NCBI RefSeq assembly: GCF_009931435.1
Contig: NZ_CP043414.1
DNA: 64,000 nucleotides
Direction: 5' to 3' (one strand)
Source of the DNA: Escherichia coli
GTDB lineage: Bacteria; Pseudomonadota; Gammaproteobacteria; Enterobacterales; Enterobacteriaceae
Shown here piece by piece: positions 6,723 to 28,990 of this stretch. Numbering within the stretch: the stretch's first letter is position 1; every line of letters begins with the position of its first letter. The notes below the pieces were generated by a model that made no database searches, was not told the origin of the DNA, and was given only the letters and a program-made list of their open reading frames with translations. Both the position numbers and the translations under genes were made by a program.

Positions 6723-7942
6723 AAATACTGGTCTACGGCATTAACTACTCGCCGGAGTTAACCGGCATCGGCAAATACACCGGCGAGATGGTGGAATGGC
6801 TGGCGGCACAAGGTCATGAGGTGCGGGTCATTACCGCACCGCCTTACTACCCGCAGTGGCAGGTGGGTGAGAACTATTCCGCCTGGCGGTACAAACGAGA
6901 AGAGGGGGCCGCCACGGTGTGGCGCTGCCCGCTGTACGTGCCAAAACAGCCGAGCACCCTGAAACGCCTGTTGCATCTCAGCAGTTTTGCCGTCAGCAGT
7001 TTCTTTCCTCTGATGGCGCAACGTCGCTGGAAGCCGGATCGCATTATTGGCGTGGTGCCAACGCTGTTTTGCACGCCGGGAATGCGCCTGCTGGCGAAAC
7101 TCTCTGGCGCGCGTACCGTGCTGCATATTCAGGATTACGAAGTGGACGCCATGCTGGGGCTGGGCCTTGCCGGAAAAGGCAAAGGCGGCAAAGTGGCACA
7201 GCTGGCGACGGCGTTCGAACGTAGCGGACTGCATAACGTCGATAACGTCTCCACGATTTCGCGTTCGATGATGAATAAAGCCATCGAAAAAGGCGTGGCG
7301 GCAGAAAACGTCATCTTCTTCCCCAACTGGTCAGAAATTGCCCGTTTTCAGCATGTTGCAGATGCCGATGTTGATGCCCTTCGTAACCAGCTTGGCCTGC
7401 CGGATAACAAAAAAATCATTCTTTACTCCGGCAATATTGGTGAAAAGCAGGGGCTGGAAAACGTTATTGAAGCTGCCGATCGCCTGCGCGATGAACCGCT
7501 GATTTTTGCCATTGTCGGGCAGGGCGGCGGCAAAGCGCGGCTGGAAAAAATGGCGCAGCAGCGTGGACTGCGCAACATGCAATTTTTTCCGCTGCAATCG
7601 TATGACGCTTTACCCGCACTGCTGAAGATGGGCGATTGCCATCTGGTGGTGCAAAAACGCGGCGCGGCAGATGCCGTATTGCCGTCGAAACTGACCAATA
7701 TTCTGGCGGTAGGCGGTAACGCGGTGATTACTGCAGAAGCCCACACAGAACTGGGACAGCTTTGCGAAACCTTTCCGGGCATTGCGGTTTGCGTAGAGCC
7801 GGAATCGGTCGAGGCGCTGGTGGCGGGGATCCGTCAGGCGCTCCTGCTGCCCAAACACAACACGGTGGCACGTGAATATGCCGAACGCACTCTCGATAAA
7901 GAGAACGTGTTACGTCAATTTATAAATGATATTCGGGGATAA
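6719..7942 (+). CDS. wcaI: colanic acid glycosyltransferase WcaI (GT4-like)
   Basis: 407-aa ORF; start overlaps gmm stop (ATGA). Confidence 0.9.
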
Positions 7943-16621: not shown

Positions 16622-18016
16622 ATGCCATTTAAAAAAATCTCCCGACGCACCTTCCTGACGGCAAGCTCGGCGCTTGCCTTCCTCCATACCCCTTTCGCCC
16701 GCGCGCTTCCCGCCCGACAAAGCGTTAACATTAACGACTACACCCCTCACGACTGGATCGCCTCATTTAAACAAGCCTTCAGCGAAGGGCAAACGGTCGT
16801 CGTGCCTGCTGGATTCGTTTGTGACAATATCAACACCGGCATCTTCATTCCTCCTGGCAAAACGTTACACATCCTTGGAAGCCTGCGCGGCAACGGCAGA
16901 GGGCGATTTGTCTTACAGGACAGCAGCCAGGTGACAGGGGAGGAGGGTGGCAGTATGCATAACATCACCCTGGATGTGCGTGGCTCTGACTGCACCATCA
17001 AAGGGCTGACGATGAGCGGCTTTGGTCCGGTAACGCAGATTTATATCGGCGGCAAAAACAAACGAGTAATGCGTAACCTCTCCATCGATAACCTGACCGT
17101 TAGCCACGCTAATTACGCCATCTTACGCCAGGGATTTCATAACCAGATTATCGGTGCCAACATCACCAACTGTAAATTTAGTGATTTACAGGGCGACGCC
17201 ATTGAATGGAACGTGGCGATTAACGACCGTGATATTTTGATATCTGACCATGTCATCGAGCGCATCAACTGTACCAACGGCAAAATCAACTGGGGTATCG
17301 GCATAGGCCTTGCGGGAAGTACCTACGATAATAACTACCCGGAAGACCAGGCAGTGAAAAACTTTGTCGTGGCGAATATCACGGGATCGGATTGTCGGCA
17401 GTTGATCCATGTTGAAAATGGTAAACATTTTGTTATTCGTAATATCAAAGCCCGCAATATCACGCCGGATTTCAGCAAGAAAGCAGGCATTGATAACGCG
17501 ACAGTTGCTATTTACGGTTGTGACAATTTCGTGATTGATAATATTGAAATGATTAATAGCGCTGGGATGTTAATCGGCTATGGGGTAATTAAAGGCAAAT
17601 ATCTCTCAATACCGCAAAATTTCCGAGTGAATAATATTCAAATGGATAACACCCATCTTGCTTATAAATTGCGCGGTATCCAAATCTCTGCCGGGAATGC
17701 TGTCTCCTTTGTGGCGCTGACTAACATTGAGATGAAGCGTGCGTCGCTGGAGTTACACAACAAACCGCAACATCTTTTTATGCGAAATATCAAGGTGATG
17801 CAGGAATCCTCAGTTGGACCCGCATTGAGCATGAACTTCGACATGCGCAAAGACGTTCGCGGCGTCTTTATGGCGAAAAAAGAAACACTGCTGTCACTTG
17901 CAAATGTTCATGCGGTGAATGAAAAAGGGCAAAGCTCCGTCGATATCGACAGAGTTAATCACCACATTGTTAATGTGGAAAAGATTAACTTTAGATTGCC
18001 AGAACGGAGGGAGTAG
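16622..18016 (+). CDS. wcaM: colanic acid biosynthesis protein WcaM (secreted, predicted beta-helix)
   Basis: 464-aa ORF; Tat-like signal ([14 protein letters not shown]); last gene of the wca operon. Confidence 0.85.
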
Positions 18017-18173
18017 ATTTGCGACCATTCATAAACTTACTGGATATAATGTTCTAAAAGATTATAATCCTCACACTAACTGTTAAAGCTGGGGCTGGGC
18101 AGCATTGACTACTCAGGGAAGGTACTCATCTTTATCTTGTGTTTCTTACGTAACAACCAGACTAAAGTGATTT

Positions 18174-19169
18174 ATGAACGATAACGTTTTGCTCATAGGA
18201 GCTTCCGGATTCGTAGGAACCCGACTACTTGAAACGGCAATTGCTGACTTTAATATCAAGAACCTGGACAAACAGCAGAGCCACTTTTATCCAGAAATCA
18301 CACAGATTGGCGATGTTCGTGATCAACAGGCACTCGACCAGGCGTTAGCCGGTTTTGACACTGTTGTACTACTGGCAGCGGAACACCGCGATGACGTCAG
18401 CCCTACTTCTCTCTATTATGATGTCAACGTTCAGGGTACCCGCAATGTGCTGGCGGCCATGGAAAAAAATGGCGTTAAAAATATCATCTTTACCAGTTCC
18501 GTTGCTGTTTATGGTTTGAACAAACACAACCCTGACGAAAACCATCCACACGATCCTTTCAACCACTACGGCAAAAGTAAGTGGCAGGCAGAGGAAGTGC
18601 TGCGTGAATGGTATAACAAAGCACCAACAGAACGTTCATTAACTATCATCCGTCCTACCGTTATCTTCGGTGAACGCAACCGCGGTAACGTCTATAACTT
18701 GCTGAAACAGATCGCTGGCGGCAAGTTTATGATGGTGGGCGCAGGGACTAACTATAAGTCCATGGCTTATGTTGGAAACATTGTTGAGTTTATCAAGTAC
18801 AAACTGAAGAATGTTGCCGCAGGTTATGAGGTTTATAACTACGTTGATAAGCCAGACCTGAACATGAACCAGTTGGTTGCTGAAGTTGAACAAAGCCTGA
18901 ACAAAAAGATCCCTTCTATGCACTTGCCTTACCCACTAGGAATGCTGGGTGGATATTGCTTTGATATCCTGAGCAAAATTACGGGCAAAAAATACGCTGT
19001 CAGCTCAGTGCGCGTGAAAAAATTCTGCGCAACAACACAGTTTGACGCAACGAAAGTGCATTCTTCAGGTTTTGTGGCACCGTATACGCTGTCGCAAGGT
19101 CTGGATCGAACACTGCAGTATGAATTCGTTCATGCCAAAAAAGACGACATAACGTTTGTTTCTGAGTAA
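18174..19169 (+). CDS. gne: NAD-dependent sugar epimerase, Gne/Gnu-like (UDP-GlcNAc/GalNAc or GlcNAc-PP-Und 4-epimerase family)
   Basis: 331-aa ORF; Rossmann motif LLIGASGFVGTRL; located between wcaM and galF, where Gne/Gnu (Z3206-type) genes occur in some E. coli serogroups. Confidence 0.7.
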   Translation: MNDNVLLIGASGFVGTRLLETAIADFNIKNLDKQQSHFYPEITQIGDVRDQQALDQALAGFDTVVLLAAEHRDDVSPTSLYYDVNVQGTRNVLAAMEKNGVKNIIFTSSVAVYGLNKHNPDENHPHDPFNHYGKSKWQAEEVLREWYNKAPTERSLTIIRPTVIFGERNRGNVYNLLKQIAGGKFMMVGAGTNYKSMAYVGNIVEFIKYKLKNVAAGYEVYNYVDKPDLNMNQLVAEVEQSLNKKIPSMHLPYPLGMLGGYCFDILSKITGKKYAVSSVRVKKFCATTQFDATKVHSSGFVAPYTLSQGLDRTLQYEFVHAKKDDITFVSE

Positions 19170-19411
19170 TGCAGACGAGTCAGAGAAATAAGGACCAGGT
19201 TGGACTACGATTATTCGGAAAGAGGTACTGATTAAATTATCAGTATGCGGAATTCCGAGTAATCCGAGTAACCCAGATGCTGATGGTGTGTAGTGTTATT
19301 CTAAGGTTTAAGCAAAGTTATGCGGAACTAAGCTTTGGTATATAGCCATAACGTTTGGCTAACCTATGGCAATAATTTACGCACTATCAGCCACTTAGAG
19401 GTAGGAAAAGA

Positions 19412-20305
19412 ATGACGAATTTAAAAGCAGTTATACCGGTAGCAGGTCTTGGGATGCATATGTTGCCTGCCACTAAGGCGATTCCCAAAGAGATGCTACC
19501 GATCGTCGACAAGCCAATGATTCAGTACATTGTTGACGAGATTGTGGCTGCAGGGATCAAAGAAATCCTCCTGGTAACTCACGCGTCCAAGAACGCAGTC
19601 GAAAACCACTTCGACACCTCTTATGAATTAGAATCTCTCCTTGAACAGCGCGTGAAGCGTCAACTGCTGGCGGAAGTACAGTCTATCTGTCCGCCGGGCG
19701 TGACCATTATGAACGTGCGTCAGGGCGAACCTTTAGGTTTAGGCCACTCCATTTTGTGTGCACGACCCGCCATTGGTGACAACCCATTTGTCGTGGTATT
19801 GCCGGACGTTGTGATCGACGACGCCAGTGCCGACCCGCTGCGCTACAACCTTGCTGCCATGATTGCACGTTTCAACGAAACGGGCCGCAGCCAGGTGCTG
19901 GCAAAACGTATGCCGGGTGACCTCTCTGAATACTCCGTCATTCAGACTAAAGAGCCGCTGGATCGTGAAGGTAAAGTCAGCCGTATTGTTGAATTCATAG
20001 AAAAGCCGGATCAGCCGCAGACGCTGGACTCAGACATCATGGCCGTTGGTCGATATGTGCTTTCTGCCGATATTTGGCCGGAACTTGAACGCACTCAGCC
20101 TGGTGCATGGGGGCGTATTCAGCTGACTGATGCCATTGCCGAACTGGCGAAAAAACAGTCCGTTGATGCCATGCTGATGACTGGTGACAGCTATGACTGC
20201 GGTAAAAAAATGGGTTATATGCAGGCGTTTGTGAAGTATGGACTGCGCAACCTCAAAGAAGGGGCGAAGTTCCGCAAAGGCATTGAGAAACTGTTAAGCG
20301 AATAA
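19412..20305 (+). CDS. galF: UTP-glucose-1-phosphate uridylyltransferase paralogue GalF
   Basis: 297-aa ORF; N-terminus [30 protein letters not shown] typical of GalF/GalU. Confidence 0.9.
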
Positions 20306-20565
20306 TGAAAATCTGACCGAATGTGACGGTTGGCAAGGAAACTATAACAGCAGTGAAGATTCGTGGCGAAAGTAATTTGTTGCGAATATTCCTGCCGTTA
20401 TTTTGTATAAACAATCAGAATAACAAATAGTTAGCAATAGGCTTTTCGTCAAAGTTTTCCTGGATTTTCCTTGTTTCCAGAACGGATTGGTAAGACAATT
20501 AGCGTTTGAGTTTCGAGGGAGATGCAGCAATGTCTCTCAGTAACAGTACGCAATATCAATGAGTT

Positions 20566-20604
20566 CAGTGCACTGGTAGCTGTTAAGCCAGGGGCGGTAG
20601 CGTG
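20566..20604 (+). promoter_or_regulatory. 39-bp JUMPstart element containing the ops site (RfaH-dependent antitermination signal)
   Basis: cagtgcactggtagctgttaagccaggggcggtagcgtg; ops core ggcggtagcgtg at 20593-20604. Confidence 0.8.
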
Positions 20605-20614
20605 GATTGATGGA

Positions 20615-21436
20615 ATGAAAAATAAGTGCCCACGAATTGCAGTAATAATGTCGGTTTATATTAATGATAAATTTAATGAGTTTAAAGAGGCTTTTGACAG
20701 TATTATTAATCAAACATACTCTAACTTTGTTTTCTTTATTTATGCCGATGGCAAGATAAATCCAGATATTGAAAGTTTTTTGCAAAATTATAATTCGCAA
20801 CATGTGATTTTCATTAGAAGTGAAAAAAATAAGGGATTAGCTTATGCTTTGAATAAATTAATATCAGTGGCGCTAGTTAATAATGAATTTGATTTTATTG
20901 CCAGAATGGATGCTGATGATATAAGTTTAGAAGATAGATTTCAACGACAAATAGATTTTTTTATGGCTAACCCTGAGTTAGATGTTGTTGGTGGGTTGTG
21001 TCAAGAGTTTGGTGGTGAGTCAGCAAGAGAAAAATGCAAGATCTATTTTACAGATGAAGCCATTAAAAACAATGCCTTTAAAAAATGTCCTTTCGTTCAT
21101 CCAACCGTGATGTTTAAATCGTCTGTATTTAATAACGGGATGCGATACCCTGAAAATCAGCCACTGACAGAAGATATGTGCTTATGGCTCGAGTTAATAT
21201 CCGCGAATAAAAAGTTTGCAAATATTGACTCCGTTCTTCTAAAGTACAGAATTAATGAGCAGACGCTAAAAAGAAGAAGAGGTTTGAATAAGGCTGTAAC
21301 CGAATTATCCACAAGATTGTATTACGCCAAGAAACTTAAAATGCTTAGCGTACGGAATTTGTTATATATATTAATCCATTTTGGTGTCAGAGTCCTTCCT
21401 TCAAATATATTTAAACTTGTACATAAGTTAAATTAA
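20615..21436 (+). CDS. O-antigen glycosyltransferase, GT2 family
   Basis: ORF 20522..21436, with the likely start (MKNKCPRIAVIMSVYIND) at 20615 just after ops; DADD motif (ARMDADDISLEDRF); AT-rich. Confidence 0.7.
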   Translation: MKNKCPRIAVIMSVYINDKFNEFKEAFDSIINQTYSNFVFFIYADGKINPDIESFLQNYNSQHVIFIRSEKNKGLAYALNKLISVALVNNEFDFIARMDADDISLEDRFQRQIDFFMANPELDVVGGLCQEFGGESAREKCKIYFTDEAIKNNAFKKCPFVHPTVMFKSSVFNNGMRYPENQPLTEDMCLWLELISANKKFANIDSVLLKYRINEQTLKRRRGLNKAVTELSTRLYYAKKLKMLSVRNLLYILIHFGVRVLPSNIFKLVHKLN

Positions 21437-21437
21437 A

Positions 21438-23204
21438 ATGAATAAAACTGTTTATACATATGATGTATGGGATACTATTTTAAAACGTCATTGTTTACCA
21501 TCATATACGTTAGAGGTTTCGTTGTACTGGCTACTTTTGTATCTTGGAAAACCTGAGAAACATAAGGATGTGTATAAAAAAGTAAAAGCACTGGAGAGTG
21601 ATTTTTTTAATCGAAAAGAAGAATATTTTATTGAAGAGCTTATTGTTGGGATATTAATTGAAAATAATTTAATGAATGGATTTTGCAATAACTCTGTGAC
21701 TGCTGCTTGGGAACAAATATATTATTTCGTAGAGAGAAATTGTACATATAAAAATAAAGAGGTTATAGAGTTAATTGGGAGTGACTATGGGGACAAATTA
21801 TTTATTTCTGATTTTTATACTGACTCCAGTTTCATAAAGAAATTGCTACACCACCACCAAGTATCGGTTTTAGATGGTGTGACGTCAGCTGAGTATGGCG
21901 TCAGTAAGCATATGGGTTCATTGTATGAAAAAATAGAACTATTGAAGCAAAGGAAATGGATCCATACTGGAGATAATGAATTAGCTGATATAAAAATGGC
22001 AAAGCGTGCAGGTGCCCAAGTTAGACTTATAAAATCCAAAAAGAAGAAAATAAATAAGTTAAAAATAAAAAATGACTATGAGCGGTTAGCATTTATTATT
22101 TTGTCCTTTAGCCTGTTTATATTAAAAACTTCCAGAAAGAAAAAGTGCAATAAGATCTACTTTTTTACAAGGGAGGGGGTTTTTTTCAAAAAAAACTTTG
22201 ATCTTCTACTAAACCAAATACCTAACATATTCCCATCTATAACTACGGAAATATTGCCAATCAGTCGAGTAGCCAGCTTAGCATTGAAGTTTAATGAGTC
22301 TGATGAATTTTTAGGATTTAATGATGCATTAACCCAGTATGGCTATGGAGTGTCTACGTTTCTTAGTTTCTTTCATCTTGATGATTGTTACTCCGAGCTC
22401 ACAACAAAGTATCATGATGTAAATGATTTATTATCTCACAGAAATGATCCTTTGGTAAAACAACTAATAAAAAGTATAGAGGATAAAAAAAAACGAACAG
22501 AAAATTTTCTTACATCCATTGAGTTCGATTCTGAGCCAAGTATCATCGTGGATATTGGTTGGCGGGGTAGCATCCAAGATAATTTAATGTCGCGGAAAAA
22601 TAATTATATTCAACATGGATGTTATCTCGGATTGTTTGATTTTTACCCAGGCCAGTCAGGTCAGAATAAATCATCTGTAATTTTTGATAACAACAGATTT
22701 AGACAAAAATGGACCATGAAAGGTGTAGCTTTTATGGAGACGGTTTTCAATGCTTTGGACGGAAGTGTTGTCGATTATGTAAACAATAAACCGAAAAGAA
22801 AAGAAAATTACGCTGAGATAGAAAATTCAAAACATTTAATAGTTATGCAAGATGCTATCATTGAGGAATTTATGAATCTATCTATTATGTTAAAAGAGGG
22901 AAAGTTAAATATCAATGATATTGAAAGATTAGCTATTGAAAGTTACAAAAAAATAGTAACTAACCCATCTAAAGAAATAGCTGATTTTTATGTTGGCAGT
23001 ATCCAAAATGAAAGCTTCGGTTTGAATGATTTTATCGACAAAGAATTTAACATTAGCGCAGTAGATGTTTTCCGAAGTTTTTTTTCTAAAAGTAAAAGAA
23101 ATGAAATAAGAATAAAATTGCATAGAAATGGATGGCGTGAGTCGATACTTAAATCCTCTAAAGTATCGCTGAGCGCAAAATTATGTTCACTTTTAATTAG
23201 ATAA
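21438..23204 (+). CDS. hypothetical 588-aa O-antigen cluster protein; HAD-like N-terminal region plus uncharacterised C-terminal domain
   Basis: Long AT-rich ORF; N-terminus YDVWDTIL and IHTGDNELADIKMAKRAGAQ loosely resemble HAD motifs I and III/IV; hydrophobic segment near residue 215; no family recognised for residues 230-588. Confidence 0.55.
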   Translation: MNKTVYTYDVWDTILKRHCLPSYTLEVSLYWLLLYLGKPEKHKDVYKKVKALESDFFNRKEEYFIEELIVGILIENNLMNGFCNNSVTAAWEQIYYFVERNCTYKNKEVIELIGSDYGDKLFISDFYTDSSFIKKLLHHHQVSVLDGVTSAEYGVSKHMGSLYEKIELLKQRKWIHTGDNELADIKMAKRAGAQVRLIKSKKKKINKLKIKNDYERLAFIILSFSLFILKTSRKKKCNKIYFFTREGVFFKKNFDLLLNQIPNIFPSITTEILPISRVASLALKFNESDEFLGFNDALTQYGYGVSTFLSFFHLDDCYSELTTKYHDVNDLLSHRNDPLVKQLIKSIEDKKKRTENFLTSIEFDSEPSIIVDIGWRGSIQDNLMSRKNNYIQHGCYLGLFDFYPGQSGQNKSSVIFDNNRFRQKWTMKGVAFMETVFNALDGSVVDYVNNKPKRKENYAEIENSKHLIVMQDAIIEEFMNLSIMLKEGKLNINDIERLAIESYKKIVTNPSKEIADFYVGSIQNESFGLNDFIDKEFNISAVDVFRSFFSKSKRNEIRIKLHRNGWRESILKSSKVSLSAKLCSLLIR

Positions 23205-23207
23205 AAT

Positions 23208-24080
23208 ATGAATATTTCAGTAATAATTTGTTGCTATAACTCAGAAAATAGAATCGTAAACACCCTTTTTCATCTTTCACAATGTGTATCTCTATCCAAG
23301 GGGTTAATTGACGAGATTATTCTTGTTGACAATAACTCATCTGATGAAACTGTTAAAACAGCTGAGGATTTTTGGCGTAATACGGGGGAGGAGCAAATCT
23401 TTAAAATTGTTTTTGAATCGATTCCGGGCCTTGTTCATGCTAGACGGCGAGGGCTGGACGAGTCCAAAAATGAGATTGTTGTTTTTTGTGATGATGATAA
23501 TTGGCTGGTACCATCTTATTTTACAAAACTAGAGAAATATTTTGAAAACAAACAAGTAGGCGCTGTCGGGGGACGCGGTATTCCTATTGCTAATACCGTT
23601 ATTCCTGAGTGGTTTTTTGAGAATCTGGATGCATATGCATGTTCTGCACAAACTTCTAACATGTTGTATGGTGCTAGCTTGGCTATTCGGTCTAGTATCT
23701 TAAAAAAATTTTATACGGATGCTTTATCAGTAAAGCTAAAGGGTAGAACAAAAGACAGTCTGGATTCTGGGGAAGATAACTTATTGTGTAATTTTGTCAA
23801 AAAACAAGGATACACTCTGATACCTGACAATACACCATTTTGCCATTTCATGGAAAGCAAGCGATTGGATGTCGATTATCTATATAAACTGGCTGAATCA
23901 TTTGGAAAAGCAACGGCATCAATGAAAAACAATTCCTTCACCACCGATTATGTATATTTGACAGCAAAAATGTTATTAGCTATATCTAGGATCTTCTCTA
24001 AAAAAAATAAAAAGATATATTTAAAACGTGAGATTTCCTTTCTCAGAGGTTATTTGAGGTTTAGAAAGGAATCGAAGTAA
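23208..24080 (+). CDS. O-antigen glycosyltransferase, GT2 family
   Basis: 290-aa ORF; classic GT2 N-terminus MNISVIICCYNSENRI ... ILVDNNSSDET ... FCDDDN. Confidence 0.75.
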   Translation: MNISVIICCYNSENRIVNTLFHLSQCVSLSKGLIDEIILVDNNSSDETVKTAEDFWRNTGEEQIFKIVFESIPGLVHARRRGLDESKNEIVVFCDDDNWLVPSYFTKLEKYFENKQVGAVGGRGIPIANTVIPEWFFENLDAYACSAQTSNMLYGASLAIRSSILKKFYTDALSVKLKGRTKDSLDSGEDNLLCNFVKKQGYTLIPDNTPFCHFMESKRLDVDYLYKLAESFGKATASMKNNSFTTDYVYLTAKMLLAISRIFSKKNKKIYLKREISFLRGYLRFRKESK

Positions 24081-25258
24081 TGAGAGGGGGAATGCTTGTA
24101 ATTGCGTGGTATTCTATTTTTCTGTTGATTTCAGCTACGGGCATGACCGGTCTAAATAAGCTGAGTACTGAAGCTATTCTGTGCTATATTGCATTTTTAT
24201 TCTGTTTTTTCTTTGGCATGATGTTAGGTGGTGTTTCGCTCCCAAACGGAATGAAAATGTTGCAACAGGAGCAAAAGATAAAGAAAAGGCATGCTTCTGC
24301 CATAGTTCTAATTTATTGCTTTTTTATTTTTTATTCTTTAATTGCTCTTTTAAATATATATTATTTCAATAAGGTTGATCTATCATCTTATAGACAAGCA
24401 TTTTTTGATGGTTCAAGAGATAATGTTAAATACTTCTATGGCGTGTTTGGCTTTTACTTCTATTATTTACTTAGCCTGTTAGTATTCGCCTTAGTTCCTT
24501 ATACTATTATAACGAACAGCAAAAAGACTATTTCATTATGTTTCTTTGCCTTGCTGCTATACGATATTATTTTCCTTTCAAGAACTGGTGTTTATTACTT
24601 TATATTATCTTATATAGTATCGAGTATTCTTCTCAAGAAAGGAATCAAGAAAATTATAATTGTAGGGATGGTTGCCTTATTATTCTCATTGATAATGAGT
24701 TACACAAGGGATATGAAGAGTGACATCATTGGTACATTATTTAGCTCAATTATAAATTATCATATAGCTCCGTTTGTCTTGTTTGATGAAAATATAATAT
24801 CAAATCATTTGATTAAATATAATGGGGCTGGCTTGGCATCGTTGGGGATATATAATATCATTTTTTATCCCATTGATTCGTCTATCATGTCATCAATAAA
24901 CGATTTTAGAGCACAGTTGAATGAATTCTATGATTTGGGAGTAAATCGTTATTTGCCATATAATGCCTATTATACTTCTTTGGGTGGGGTATATATAGAT
25001 AGCGGCCTGATTGGTAGCATGATGGTTAGTTTTATGACTGGTTTTATTATTGTCGGAATCGAGAAGAGTGCTTTTAAATCAACTAAGTTCTTAGTCTCTT
25101 CTGTGTTTTTTACTACATTATGTATGGAATCTATATTTTCCCCAATAACACTAAATATTTTTGCCTTTACAATAATTGTCTACTTAGTTGTTTTGATGGT
25201 CCTTAAATATGAAAATAGCGATGATAATACCATCTTTAAAAAATACCGCGCCAAATAA
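24080..25258 (+). CDS. wzy: putative O-antigen polymerase
   Basis: 392-aa highly hydrophobic, Phe/Ile/Tyr-rich multi-TM ORF inside the O-antigen cluster; assignment by elimination (wzx is the other polytopic protein). Confidence 0.55.
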   Translation: MRGGMLVIAWYSIFLLISATGMTGLNKLSTEAILCYIAFLFCFFFGMMLGGVSLPNGMKMLQQEQKIKKRHASAIVLIYCFFIFYSLIALLNIYYFNKVDLSSYRQAFFDGSRDNVKYFYGVFGFYFYYLLSLLVFALVPYTIITNSKKTISLCFFALLLYDIIFLSRTGVYYFILSYIVSSILLKKGIKKIIIVGMVALLFSLIMSYTRDMKSDIIGTLFSSIINYHIAPFVLFDENIISNHLIKYNGAGLASLGIYNIIFYPIDSSIMSSINDFRAQLNEFYDLGVNRYLPYNAYYTSLGGVYIDSGLIGSMMVSFMTGFIIVGIEKSAFKSTKFLVSSVFFTTLCMESIFSPITLNIFAFTIIVYLVVLMVLKYENSDDNTIFKKYRAK

Positions 25259-26234
25259 TATAGCCCTTTCAATATGTGAAGGGGCAAGGAAGCATGGTGT
25301 CAATATAGATATTTATTATCTTGATGAAATTGTAGAGTTGGATATAGACGAGTCAGAACTGAATATAAATAGGCTAAATGATAGAACCATTTTAAACAGT
25401 TATGATATTGTTCACTCTCATGGCTTAAGACCCGATGTTATTAATTGTAAGACCAGCAAAAATGTCATTAATGTAAGTACGCTTCATAGTTTTATTTTAG
25501 ATGATCTTAAGAATAAATATGGAATAAAAGGATATCTGATCGCTTTTGCTTGGCTTAAATTATTAAAGCGATTTGATTCATGTATTGCAATTAGTGAGGC
25601 GACTAAACGGTTTTATGTTAAACATGGTCTTAAATGCCACCATATATATAATGGAATCGACTTTCCTGACATCGAATTATATCAAGATAACTCAAGGCTA
25701 AATAACGGCAAAATAAATATAGTATCGATCGCGCATCTGGAAAAAATAAAAGGCTTAGAGCAACTCCTATATCTAGCCGCGGAGCGAGAAGAGTTCCATG
25801 TTCATATAATTGGTGAAGGAACTTACCGTGGGAAATTAACAAATATTATTGATAAGTTTGATTTATCTCAGCGTGTAACTTTGCATGGATATATATCAAA
25901 TGCGAGTTCTATGTTGGGGAAATTTGATGTTTATGTGCAACCATCTAAAAGTGAGGGGTTTGGCATTGCAGTCATTGAAGCTCTTGTAAATAAAATCCCA
26001 ACAGTTTGCTCAGACATTGAAGTGTTCAGAGAGTTATTTGGCTCAGGAGAAGTTGAATTTTTCAAGTTAGACGATATTAATTCACTTTACGATGCAATTT
26101 CAAGTGCATTAACCAAGACAGATATGTCTCGAGATGCAAGTGCCACAGCGATAAGCCAAAAATTTTCTTCAGAAGTGATGTCATTGAACTATTTAAGTTG
26201 GTATAAAAAATTATATGAAGAAAGAAATTTATAA
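25209..26234 (+). CDS. O-antigen glycosyltransferase, GT4 family
   Basis: 341-aa ORF; GT4 E-x7-E region (SKSEGFGIAVIEALVNKIPTVCSDIEVFRELF). Confidence 0.75.
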   Translation: MKIAMIIPSLKNTAPNNIALSICEGARKHGVNIDIYYLDEIVELDIDESELNINRLNDRTILNSYDIVHSHGLRPDVINCKTSKNVINVSTLHSFILDDLKNKYGIKGYLIAFAWLKLLKRFDSCIAISEATKRFYVKHGLKCHHIYNGIDFPDIELYQDNSRLNNGKINIVSIAHLEKIKGLEQLLYLAAEREEFHVHIIGEGTYRGKLTNIIDKFDLSQRVTLHGYISNASSMLGKFDVYVQPSKSEGFGIAVIEALVNKIPTVCSDIEVFRELFGSGEVEFFKLDDINSLYDAISSALTKTDMSRDASATAISQKFSSEVMSLNYLSWYKKLYEERNL

Positions 26235-27393
26235 ATATGGCACAATAATATTATGCTATGGAATTAACTTTATACTACCTATTCTTTTCTTTAAAGAAAT
26301 AAGTTTAATATTATCTCCAATAGTATTATCATCATTTTTCTTTGTTTTGGCATTGCTAATGTATTGTCAATTCATTGTTGAATACGGGTTGCAAATATCA
26401 TTATTAAGAAAGTTAAATGAAAATAAGAGTGATTTAAGTCGGCTTTTATCTACTATTCTTGGACTAAAAGTAATACTATTCGTCCTATGCGCAGTATTCA
26501 TTTATTGTATTTTGCTATATAATAATGAAGTTATATTTTTTATACTTGTTTTCATTCTGCTAGGAAACGTATTCTCATGCCAGTTCCTCTATCAAGTAGT
26601 TGATCAGCTCCATTTTTTTTATGTATTAAATTCGCTTGTTAAGCTAATTTTCATACCCCTCATTTTTATCAATGATAATTATATCTATCTGATGATATGT
26701 TATAGTTGTTTCAATATCCTACCTAACTTAGCTGCACTTGCTTATTTTTTATATAAGAATAAAGTTAAGGTTGTAAAAGTTCCTGCTTGTGAAATTTATA
26801 ATTTATCTAAGGAATGTTTTAGCTATTTTATCTCGAATATTTCGATAACATTATACACTAATTTTTATCAGATCTTATTAGGCATTATATCGCCCGCTTA
26901 TCTGGCCGCGTATGCATTAAGTGACAAAATTATTAGGGGGATCGTGTCAGGGAATTATGTGTTTATACAGATAGTACAAGTACAATACTTAAATGATGAA
27001 TCAAAGTTCATCAATGGTACATGGAAAACGATTGTTTCATTATTATTACTGGGGGGGATGGAGTTTTTATTTATTTTCTTTGGAGCGGATTTTTTCTCTC
27101 GTTATTTATTCCCTACAATATCTTTACTGCCAATTTTTCTAAAACTAATGTCATTGCTAATTGTTGTTATCTTGTTGAGTAACTTTTTTGCAATGGTTTA
27201 TCTTCCGTGTTCAGGCAATACTTTATTCCTCTCACGTGTTCTGATTTTTGTTTCTATTGTGTCCGTAGTAGTTGCCCCGATACTAATATGGCTCTATGCA
27301 GGTTATGGTGCAGTCATTTCCGCTATATTTTCAGAGTTATTAGTTCTGATTTTATGCTATGGTTTATATTTGAAATTAAAACACAAACTCTAA
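26215..27393 (+). CDS. wzx: putative O-antigen flippase
   Basis: 392-aa polytopic membrane ORF, about 12 predicted TM segments, AT-rich. Confidence 0.65.
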   Translation: MKKEIYKYGTIILCYGINFILPILFFKEISLILSPIVLSSFFFVLALLMYCQFIVEYGLQISLLRKLNENKSDLSRLLSTILGLKVILFVLCAVFIYCILLYNNEVIFFILVFILLGNVFSCQFLYQVVDQLHFFYVLNSLVKLIFIPLIFINDNYIYLMICYSCFNILPNLAALAYFLYKNKVKVVKVPACEIYNLSKECFSYFISNISITLYTNFYQILLGIISPAYLAAYALSDKIIRGIVSGNYVFIQIVQVQYLNDESKFINGTWKTIVSLLLLGGMEFLFIFFGADFFSRYLFPTISLLPIFLKLMSLLIVVILLSNFFAMVYLPCSGNTLFLSRVLIFVSIVSVVVAPILIWLYAGYGAVISAIFSELLVLILCYGLYLKLKHKL

Positions 27394-27415
27394 CTATTAA
27401 CGTAGAATAATTAAA

Positions 27416-27856
27416 ATGAATTTATTGATTGTTTTTTGCTTTTATATTTCGGTTCTGCGTAGTAATAAAATAAGTGTATTTAAATTAATCACTATCACAA
27501 CTGTCTTGATTGTATATGTATTCTGGCTAATAGCCGACAGTTTTACTGGCGTTGGGATAAATGATTCAGTTTATTTCCATATGTTAATGCCGCATGAGGG
27601 GGCATCGGTTGAAAATTTAACATATTATGGATTTCTGATTGTAAGCCTTGTTATTTCAATTTTCTTGATTGCTTATGTTTCTTGGAAAAAGAAGCATAAT
27701 AGAGGATTAAGTAAAAATTACTCTTTTTACGTACTCTTCGCTATTGTATTAGTTACTCCATTTATGCGTAATTTCCTGGGGTCAATTAACAATTTAATTT
27801 CCGAACAGTTTTCTACTGAAGATATAAGTAAAGAGTATGTAATCAATAGTAGGTGA
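27416..27856 (+). pseudogene. 3'-truncated membrane-protein gene, last gene of the O-antigen cluster, interrupted by IS1
   Basis: 146-codon ORF with N-terminal TM helices; its stop codon TGA (27854-27856) lies inside the IS1 left terminal repeat. Confidence 0.6.
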
Positions 27857-27906
27857 TGCTGCCAACTTACTGATTTAGTGTATGATGGTGTTTTTGAGGT
27901 GCTCCA

Positions 27907-28182
27907 GTGGCTTCTGTTTCTATCAGCTGTCCCTCCTGTTCAGCTACTGACGGGGTGGTGCGTAACGGCAAAAGCACCGCCGGACATCAGCGCTATCTCT
28001 GCTCTCACTGCCGTAAAACATGGCAACTGCAGTTCACTTACACCGCTTCTCAACCCGGTACGCACCAGAAAATCATTGATATGGCCATGAATGGCGTTGG
28101 ATGCCGGGCAACCGCCCGCATTATGGGCGTTGGCCTCAACACGATTTTCCGCCATTTAAAAAACTCAGGCCGCAGTCGGTAA
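27907..28182 (+). CDS. insA: IS1 InsA
   Basis: 91-aa [26 protein letters not shown]..., zinc-finger/HTH InsA. Confidence 0.9.
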
Positions 28183-28604
28183 CCTCGCGCATACAGCCGG
28201 GCAGTGACGTCATCGTCTGCGCGGAAATGGACGAACAGTGGGGCTATGTCGGGGCTAAATCGCGCCAGCGCTGGCTGTTTTACGCGTATGACAGGCTCCG
28301 GAAGACGGTTGTTGCGCACGTATTCGGTGAACGCACTATGGCGACGCTGGGGCGTCTTATGAGCCTGCTGTCACCCTTTGACGTGGTGATATGGATGACG
28401 GATGGCTGGCCGCTGTATGAATCCCGCCTGAAGGGAAAGCTGCACGTAATCAGCAAGCGATATACGCAGCGAATTGAGCGGCATAACCTGAATCTGAGGC
28501 AGCACCTGGCACGGCTGGGACGGAAGTCGCTGTCGTTCTCAAAATCGGTGGAGCTGCATGACAAAGTCATCGGGCATTATCTGAACATAAAACACTATCA
28601 ATAA
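28101..28604 (+). CDS. insB: IS1 InsB (expressed as InsAB' by -1 frameshift)
   Basis: 167-aa ORF overlapping insA in the -1 frame, ending ...HYLNIKHYQ. Confidence 0.9.
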
Positions 28605-28990
28605 GTTGGAGTCATTACCGGTTACGAGTAGTGGCATCTGGATTTGATGTGTGTAACATTAATGAGTCGTTAATATTAGCTAGAGTTGGTGATAATATGT
28701 TGGCTAGGCGAAAAGGGCTGAGGTATATAAAAAGTGAATTCCAACTTTATCGGCTAAAAGTTAAACTTGGTTTGCAGTCACATATATCTGGATTCTGCAT
28801 TTTGTTAGTAAGAAGCATTCCGCGATTACTCCCTCTAAAGGTCTTAAAAATTATTTACCAATATATTCGGAAGTAATTATATAATAATTCTGAAGATTGC
28901 ACTCTTATTTTTTCTTAGTTGTATCTTTGTATGTTAACATTACGTTTAAACCGAACCGCTAAGACGGTAATTTCGTGACAGGAGTAAACA

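Follow-up and report, generated by a model that had tools for sequence, protein, structure and literature searches.

A gene for an NAD-dependent epimerase lies between the colanic acid operon and galF in the 64,000-nucleotide stretch of the Escherichia coli contig NZ_CP043414.1 that was analysed here, which is called the window below. The question raised by this locus is whether the enzyme provides the starting sugar for the O-antigen encoded on the other side of galF or whether the gene is only carried along with that flank of the chromosome. The first-pass annotation had described it as a Gne/Gnu-type 4-epimerase gene functionally paired with the downstream cluster. The observation itself was confirmed and this interpretation was partly supported: the identity of the gene and its biochemical mechanism are secure and already known, but its service to this particular cluster is not secure. 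The gene and its flanks are arranged as follows:

16622..18016, + strand: wcaM, terminal gene of the colanic acid operon and upstream boundary (NF007517, 1023 bits, and TIGR04004, above cutoffs)
18031..19410, no strand: gnu-specific segment, missing from the gnu-less wcaM-galF allele (BLAST against strain KSC9)
18041..18068, + strand: best sigma-70-like promoter match, TGGATA-16-TATAAT, 10/12 (consensus scan; a pattern match only)
18174..19169, + strand: gnu (Z3206-type) coding sequence, extended-SDR GlcNAc-PP-undecaprenol 4-epimerase (ORF, protein identity, PF01370, motifs)
19412..20305, + strand: galF, downstream boundary (TIGR01105, 689 bits, above cutoff)
20593..20600, + strand: ops element GGCGGTAG of JUMPstart (pattern search; context conserved in the locus of strain 2012C-4431, L010)

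As had been claimed, an ORF of 331 aa with an ATG start occupies exactly 18174..19169 in the ORF listing of the window, and its product matched the Pfam family Epimerase (PF01370, E = 8.5e-31). The SDR motifs are intact (Rossmann GASGFVG at residues 9-15, S108/S109 and Y132-x3-K136), Y132 and K136 line up with the equivalent Tyr and Lys in 8rdg, the closest solved SDR, and no transmembrane segment was found in the protein. The ORF is thus a genuine gene and not a chance one. Its location between wcaM and galF, outside the galF-gnd interval, was also correctly described, and the same order is present in O157. The JUMPstart region with its ops element, which is the start of the O-antigen operon, is found downstream of galF and, therefore, gnu is outside that operon; a second ops-like match at 7705 was discarded as within chance expectation. 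The gnu ATG follows about 105 nt after the sigma-70-like match, which is within the gnu-specific segment. The GC content, which had been considered chromosomal, proved to be intermediate, since gnu has a GC of 0.451 (GC3 0.485) versus 0.522 in the window outside 16.6-33 kb and 0.29-0.35 in the O-antigen genes. The GC of wcaM is 0.472, compared with 0.54 in the upstream colanic acid genes.

The gnu product showed 100% amino acid identity with the protein of the O157:H7 strain Z1768 (WP_000999466.1), which is also the Gnu of the O178:H19 strain 2012C-4431. At the DNA level the identity with the O157:H7 allele was 99.2%, the 8 nucleotide differences being all synonymous and in third position. Because the protein is identical to the O157:H7 product, the gene is Z3206/gnu at protein level. 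The call as a Z3206/Gnu-type 4-epimerase was thus borne out by the protein comparison and is already known, as the gene is at its textbook position and correctly annotated by RefSeq, where its copies are named 'N-acetyl-alpha-D-glucosaminyl-diphospho-ditrans,octacis-undecaprenol 4-epimerase' (Gnu, EC 5.1.3.26). Of the 5426 complete E. coli genomes searched by megablast, 1314 have gnu at the wcaM-galF locus; the copies were essentially all chromosomal, and 993 of the 1314 were at least 99% identical. The window and O157:H7 share the protein sequence, the wcaM-galF position and the linked galF allele (WP_000183060.1, found in the O178:H19 strain as well). However, the neighbouring cluster is different: in O157, GalNAc is the sole HexNAc and Gnu is required, whereas the window cluster is of the O153 genotype, for which a GlcNAc-only unit has been published.

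That genes at this position supply GalNAc as initiating sugar in some serogroups, as the first-pass annotation stated, is documented. A gnu gene immediately upstream of galF indicates that the O-unit begins with GalNAc (Liu 2020, PMC7685785), and the presence or absence of gnu fitted the O-unit structure in 104 of the 115 serogroups surveyed by Cunneen (2013, PMC3682973). According to the account given there of the work of Rush (2010), the O157 enzyme was inactive on UDP-GlcNAc and converted UndPP-GlcNAc into UndPP-GalNAc after the action of WecA. In the established mechanism, WecA makes undecaprenyl-PP-GlcNAc and Gnu reversibly epimerises its C4 to give undecaprenyl-PP-GalNAc; Tyr132 and Lys136 with bound NAD, by the usual SDR chemistry, imply a transient 4-keto intermediate. 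The O-unit glycosyltransferases then extend whichever of the lipid-linked acceptors they recognise. The gnu gene, lying outside the operon controlled by JUMPstart/ops, has a promoter-like site of its own. Since the reaction is reversible, the lipid carrier would not become trapped by product that is left unused.

Two features of the adjacent cluster are needed here:

20522..27856, + strand: O-antigen cluster, O153 genotype (Pfam, NCBIfam, PDB 7SHG match, O153 wzx primers)
21438-23204, + strand: 588-aa ribofuranosyltransferase homologue (PDB 7SHG, 'Ribofuranosyl transferase', E = 4.3e-14, residues 7-534)

The genotype was assigned by in-silico PCR with published wzx primers (Ludwig 2020, PMC7403468 supplement) on the window and on the 2012C-4431 locus. 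The O153 primers matched the window perfectly at 26479-27219, giving exactly the expected amplicon of 741 bp, and the O178 primers matched only the 2012C-4431 locus, with an amplicon of exactly 495 bp; the O19 wzx primers had no match in either of them. By these primer sites, the genotype of the window cluster is O153. The order of its genes is GT2, the 588-aa protein, GT2, wzy, GT4, wzx and a truncated ORF of 146 aa (orf146), and no sugar-nucleotide synthesis genes were identified between 20522 and 27856. The first GT2 ends at 21436, with its start at 20522 or 20615, and the second occupies 23208-24080. The 588-aa protein, labelled 'hypothetical protein' by PGAP, had no Pfam or NCBIfam family above the curated cutoff. 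As O153 and O178 both contain D-Ribf and each was counted as having one glycosyltransferase fewer than expected (Liu 2020), this protein probably corresponds to the D-Ribf of O153 and accounts for the missing glycosyltransferase, judging by its structural match. The predicted gene content of the window fits a Ribf-containing pentasaccharide. We take the O153 unit to be ->2)-beta-Ribf-(1->4)-beta-Gal-(1->4)-alpha-GlcNAc-(1->4)-beta-Gal-(1->3)-alpha-GlcNAc-(1->, which by the CAZy family rules would require two inverting glycosyltransferases, a retaining one and a Ribf transferase; the two GT2, the GT4 and the putative Ribf transferase of the window would be exactly this set.

The name O153 has to be handled with care. 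DebRoy (2016), with whom the primer result agrees, reported that the O153 sequence (KJ755551) is different from the O178 one and has specificity for O153 isolates of clinical origin, disputing the 99.9% identity between O153 and O178 given by Iguchi, and the two O153 reference sequences disagree. The CDC labels are O153:H2 for strain 2011C-4315 and O178:H19 for strain 2012C-4431 (PMC5754485); the first one is gnu-positive and carries the window's cluster, and its label is in agreement with the primer result too. Strain CD45, which carries the exact window cluster, was typed in silico as O153:H7, and its sister isolates as O178:H7. This typing suggested that the window cluster could be the O153/O178 group of Iguchi, with gnu separating O178 from O153. 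Such a possibility was ruled out, as 2012C-4431 lacks the window wzy even in a distant-mode search, is absent from all 79 wzy-positive genomes, and its cluster alone is matched by the O178 primers. The galF-gnd interval of this strain contains genes for a HAD hydrolase, a membrane protein, a GT4-type glycosyltransferase, Wzx, Wzy, a GT4 and a GT2. This cluster (L010 25544-32791), whose Wzx and Wzy bear the PGAP name 'O153/O178 family', has in common with the window cluster only one GT2 pair, at 31% identity. By sequence comparison, the name O153 covers two unrelated clusters in public resources: the 'O153/O178 family' Wzx/Wzy of RefSeq, after Iguchi, are those of the 2012C-4431 cluster, and the published O153 PCR target (Ludwig 2020, DebRoy 2016) is the window cluster.

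Strains with the window cluster bear the labels O153:H2, O153:H7, O19:H45 (TW11681) and O-non-typable (IBS28 and KSC9). An O19 genotype was also considered, on account of TW11681 and of SMS-3-5 (O19:H34), both gnu-positive strains with this cluster. It was rejected, given that O19 units hold several L-Rha (PMC7685785), that rml genes are missing from the window cluster and that the primers for O19 wzx fail. The 2012C-4431 cluster starts (L010 25544-26931) with genes for a HAD-family hydrolase and a polytopic membrane protein of about 260 aa. Apart from the HAD domain, this pair had no PDB or Pfam match, and its consideration as a split ribofuranosyltransferase was abandoned; given the Ribf of O178, it may be part of a lipid-linked pentofuranose pathway other than that of the fused transferase in the window.

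The published composition of O153 has two main-chain GlcNAc and no GalNAc, its type strain being scored as 'gnu absent and correct', and that of O178 has one GalNAc and one GlcNAc (Cunneen 2013, Table S2, machine-read from a supplementary PDF with shifted columns that were realigned by the Totals row); for O153, the strain analysed may carry the other cluster of this name. Among the complete genomes, 79 have the O153-type wzy of the window, of which 71 are gnu-positive and 8 gnu-less; gnu is thus present in 90% of the window-cluster genomes versus 24% of all genomes. In contrast, the cluster of the 'O153/O178 family' was accompanied by gnu in all of its 16 genomes. The gnu-less strains belong to two flank haplotypes, one comprising TBE6, KSC9, IBS28, ZH48, ZH49 and TST3, and the other Z226-7 and BroCaecum-55. 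Between the window and gnu-less KSC9 (L003), homology stops about 14 bp past the wcaM stop (18009-18030) and restarts at the start of galF (19411), from which the gnu-specific segment was delimited as about 18031-19410. Over approximately 20.9-27.9 kb the clusters of both strains showed 0 mismatches, and all the 276 differing columns are in galF and the downstream spacer (19412-20911). As the cluster is identical and the divergence is confined to galF and the spacer, the flank must have been exchanged by recombination at the cluster edge.

In the comparison with O157, gnu and the 5' part of galF showed 1-6 differences per 250 nt and wcaL-wcaM 8-18, and the sequence beyond galF was unalignable. 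A single Gnu protein and galF allele are found beside three unrelated clusters, those of O157, the O178 type and the window. Hence, gnu looks like a part of a conserved wcaM(3')-gnu-galF flank haplotype which recombines independently of the O-antigen cluster, with its breakpoint in the galF-JUMPstart region, and for this reason the identical cluster is found with and without gnu. The 3' end of wcaM has 75% identity between the gnu-positive and gnu-less haplotypes, and the stretch from galF to the first glycosyltransferase (19411-21500) a mean of 87%. The haplotypes at the border of the O-antigen cluster have therefore diverged deeply from one another, suggestive of recombination tracts that are old. 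In KSC9 and IBS28 (L003 and L004, 1-3660), which represent the main gnu-less haplotype, IS26, a partial ISAeme16, stbA and an IS1 fragment stand in place of most colanic acid genes, and the last 282 nt of wcaM alone are left before galF. This replacement is annotated alike in a pig isolate from the US (KSC9) and an ibis isolate from Australia (IBS28), and the junction of wcaM remnant, galF and GT2 was also present in four more isolates, three from pigs or pig carcasses and one from a slaughterhouse surface.

On balance, we consider it slightly more probable than not that gnu is here an intact but dispensable passenger of its flank haplotype and not a required partner of the O153-type cluster, because the O153 unit, as published, contains GlcNAc only, two independent flanks carry the cluster without gnu, and gnu was found 'in excess of need' in 6 serogroups (Cunneen 2013, PMC3682973). 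The functional pairing with the downstream cluster is thus called into question by the O153 genotype, the published GlcNAc-only composition, the gnu-negative type strain and the 8 of 79 genomes in which the cluster lacks gnu. Against dispensability, it may be argued that the co-occurrence of 90% versus 24%, which is compatible with tight linkage or need, could mean need, that the gnu-less strains might be rough, and that, given the disagreement between the O153 references of Iguchi and DebRoy, the O153 strain studied chemically may be of the other cluster.

The opposite explanation, possible although somewhat doubtful, is that gnu is used. In such a case, the first glycosyltransferase would accept undecaprenyl-PP-GalNAc, the gnu-positive strains would build a GalNAc-initiated variant and the 8 gnu-less strains a GlcNAc-initiated form, gnu being an out-of-cluster modifier of the O-antigen chemistry. 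This would agree with an intact protein that is subject to purifying selection and does not differ from the active enzyme of O157, with the presence of gnu in 71 of the 79 genomes across diverse hosts and lineages, with its fit to structural expectation in most serogroups, and with the fact that O153 and O178 are both Ribf units whose HexNAc differs (two GlcNAc versus one GalNAc and one GlcNAc). However, the published O153 composition has no GalNAc, the cluster survives without gnu on two independent flank haplotypes, the gnu-positive strain 2011C-4315 was labelled O153:H2 and not O178 by the CDC, and no selection is needed to account for the 90% association, as tight physical linkage (1.3 kb) suffices.

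It is a tentative and rather unlikely extension of this second explanation that the first glycosyltransferase takes both acceptors, with gnu as a hidden out-of-cluster switch between GalNAc- and GlcNAc-initiated O-antigens made from the same cluster. If the switch were true, genotyping by wzx/wzy would be blind to the difference, which could be a partial cause of the confused O153/O178/O19 labels of these strains; likewise, if gnu alters the first sugar, gnu status would need to be added to the genotyping schemes for this group. In any case, the presence of gnu beside an O-antigen cluster is not a proof of a GalNAc-initiated O-unit, which calls for caution in annotation and in-silico serotyping. 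This warning about inferring GalNAc initiation from gnu alone is a by-product of the analysis, as is the double use of the name O153 in public resources.

Instead of an enzyme with a lipid-linked substrate, the product could be a classical Gne, that is, a UDP-GlcNAc/UDP-GalNAc 4-epimerase supplying a nucleotide-sugar donor, as the locus was first annotated (Wang 2002, as cited in Cunneen 2013, PMC3682973) and as in Iguchi (2015), who named the gene at this position 'gne (UDP-GalNAc-4-epimerase)'. We consider this very improbable because the identical O157 protein, as far as the cited account of its assays goes, was reported to have no activity on UDP-GlcNAc, and its sequence is far from GalE: the GalE model TIGR01179 gave 71.4 bits with the gnu product, versus a cutoff of 262.3, and covered only residues 5-170, and the E. 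coli GalE structures aligned at about 47 bits over residues 45-167 only. In addition, E. coli O86 requires both gne1, whose protein is identical to the window Gnu, and a separate in-cluster gne2 (Cunneen 2013). Homology to GalE, which as the best match would have spoken against the first-pass annotation, was therefore restricted to the N-terminal part and far below the cutoff. By sequence identity, the product falls within clade D of Cunneen (2013), that of the characterised O157 enzyme, and it lacks both the relationship with GalE across the two domains and the in-cluster gene position of Gne. Consequently, of the label 'Gne/Gnu', which joined two enzymes kept apart in the literature, Gnu (lipid-linked substrate) stands and Gne (UDP-GlcNAc) has to be dropped; the subfamily was right, but GalNAc in the O-unit is undocumented and the published O153 composition lacks it.

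The comparison with related enzymes is in accordance with this classification. Gne (GalE-like, clade A) is likewise an extended, NAD-dependent SDR that epimerises the C4 of an N-acetylhexosamine and is tied to GalNAc-containing O-antigens, but it acts on a nucleotide sugar, its gene is usually inside the O-antigen cluster and its similarity to the gnu product is weak. The UDP-GlcNAcA 4-epimerases of the GnaB/WbpP type (clade B) share the SDR fold class and a past annotation as 'Gne', whereas they act on UDP-GlcNAcA in the synthesis of GalNAcA; the 60 listed of the 88 PDB matches to the gnu product included no structure of the WbpP type, and no GalNAcA pathway genes were found in the O-antigen cluster of the window. 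The Gnu of Yersinia pseudotuberculosis belongs to clade D too, and its presence correlates absolutely with GalNAc as first sugar, although about 50% of its residues differ from the E. coli O157 protein and its genes are inside the O-antigen cluster and not upstream of galF (PMC3682973). Outside Gnu, the best families and structures were HpnA (95.5 bits), 3Beta_HSD (PF01073, 95.7 bits), OleD and NSDHL (structure 6jkg, E = 2.3e-17). The top scores of these lipid-acting extended SDRs (HpnA, 3-beta-HSD/NSDHL and OleD) are consistent with a hydrophobic, membrane-anchored substrate, but they catalyse other reactions, and their NCBIfam scores, far under the equivalog cutoffs, indicate resemblance and not membership.

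Finally, that gnu is present yet silent or functionally decayed in this strain is scarcely credible, as the ORF is full-length with all catalytic motifs, its differences from the allele of the active O157 enzyme are synonymous with zero amino acid changes, and the alleles are highly conserved across genomes (993/1314), although the sole regulatory evidence is a consensus promoter match.

Some annotation details of the window cluster were also noted. The ops element at 20593-20600 is inside the annotated ORF of the first glycosyltransferase, which starts at 20522; the family matches of this protein start at residue 32-41 and an in-frame ATG is found at 20615, just past ops. The annotated start is thus probably about 31 codons too far upstream, judging by these matches. 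The acceptor of this enzyme was also sought through the O157 GT2 located just past galF (WbdN), with generic N-terminal GT2 similarity as the only and uninformative result (31% over 119 aa). The wzx gene (26215-27393, + strand) is an intact ORF of 392 aa with a terminal stop only, both in the window and in five comparison genomes (L001 22042-23220; L003-L006 10636-11814). RefSeq/PGAP splits it into a pseudogene ('flippase, incomplete, missing C-terminus') and a separate hypothetical protein, which looks like an annotation artefact in view of the uninterrupted frame. The N-terminus of the 146-aa ORF is similar to phosphoglycerol transferase (NF009027, E = 1.5e-11). This ORF is cut short (region 27416-28619) by an IS1 of 768 bp at 27852-28619 with a perfect left inverted repeat at 27852-27874, and its stop codon coincides with the IS1 boundary. 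All five comparison loci examined have an annotated IS1 transposase in the corresponding place and, therefore, the insertion is probably an old one that has become fixed in clusters of this type.
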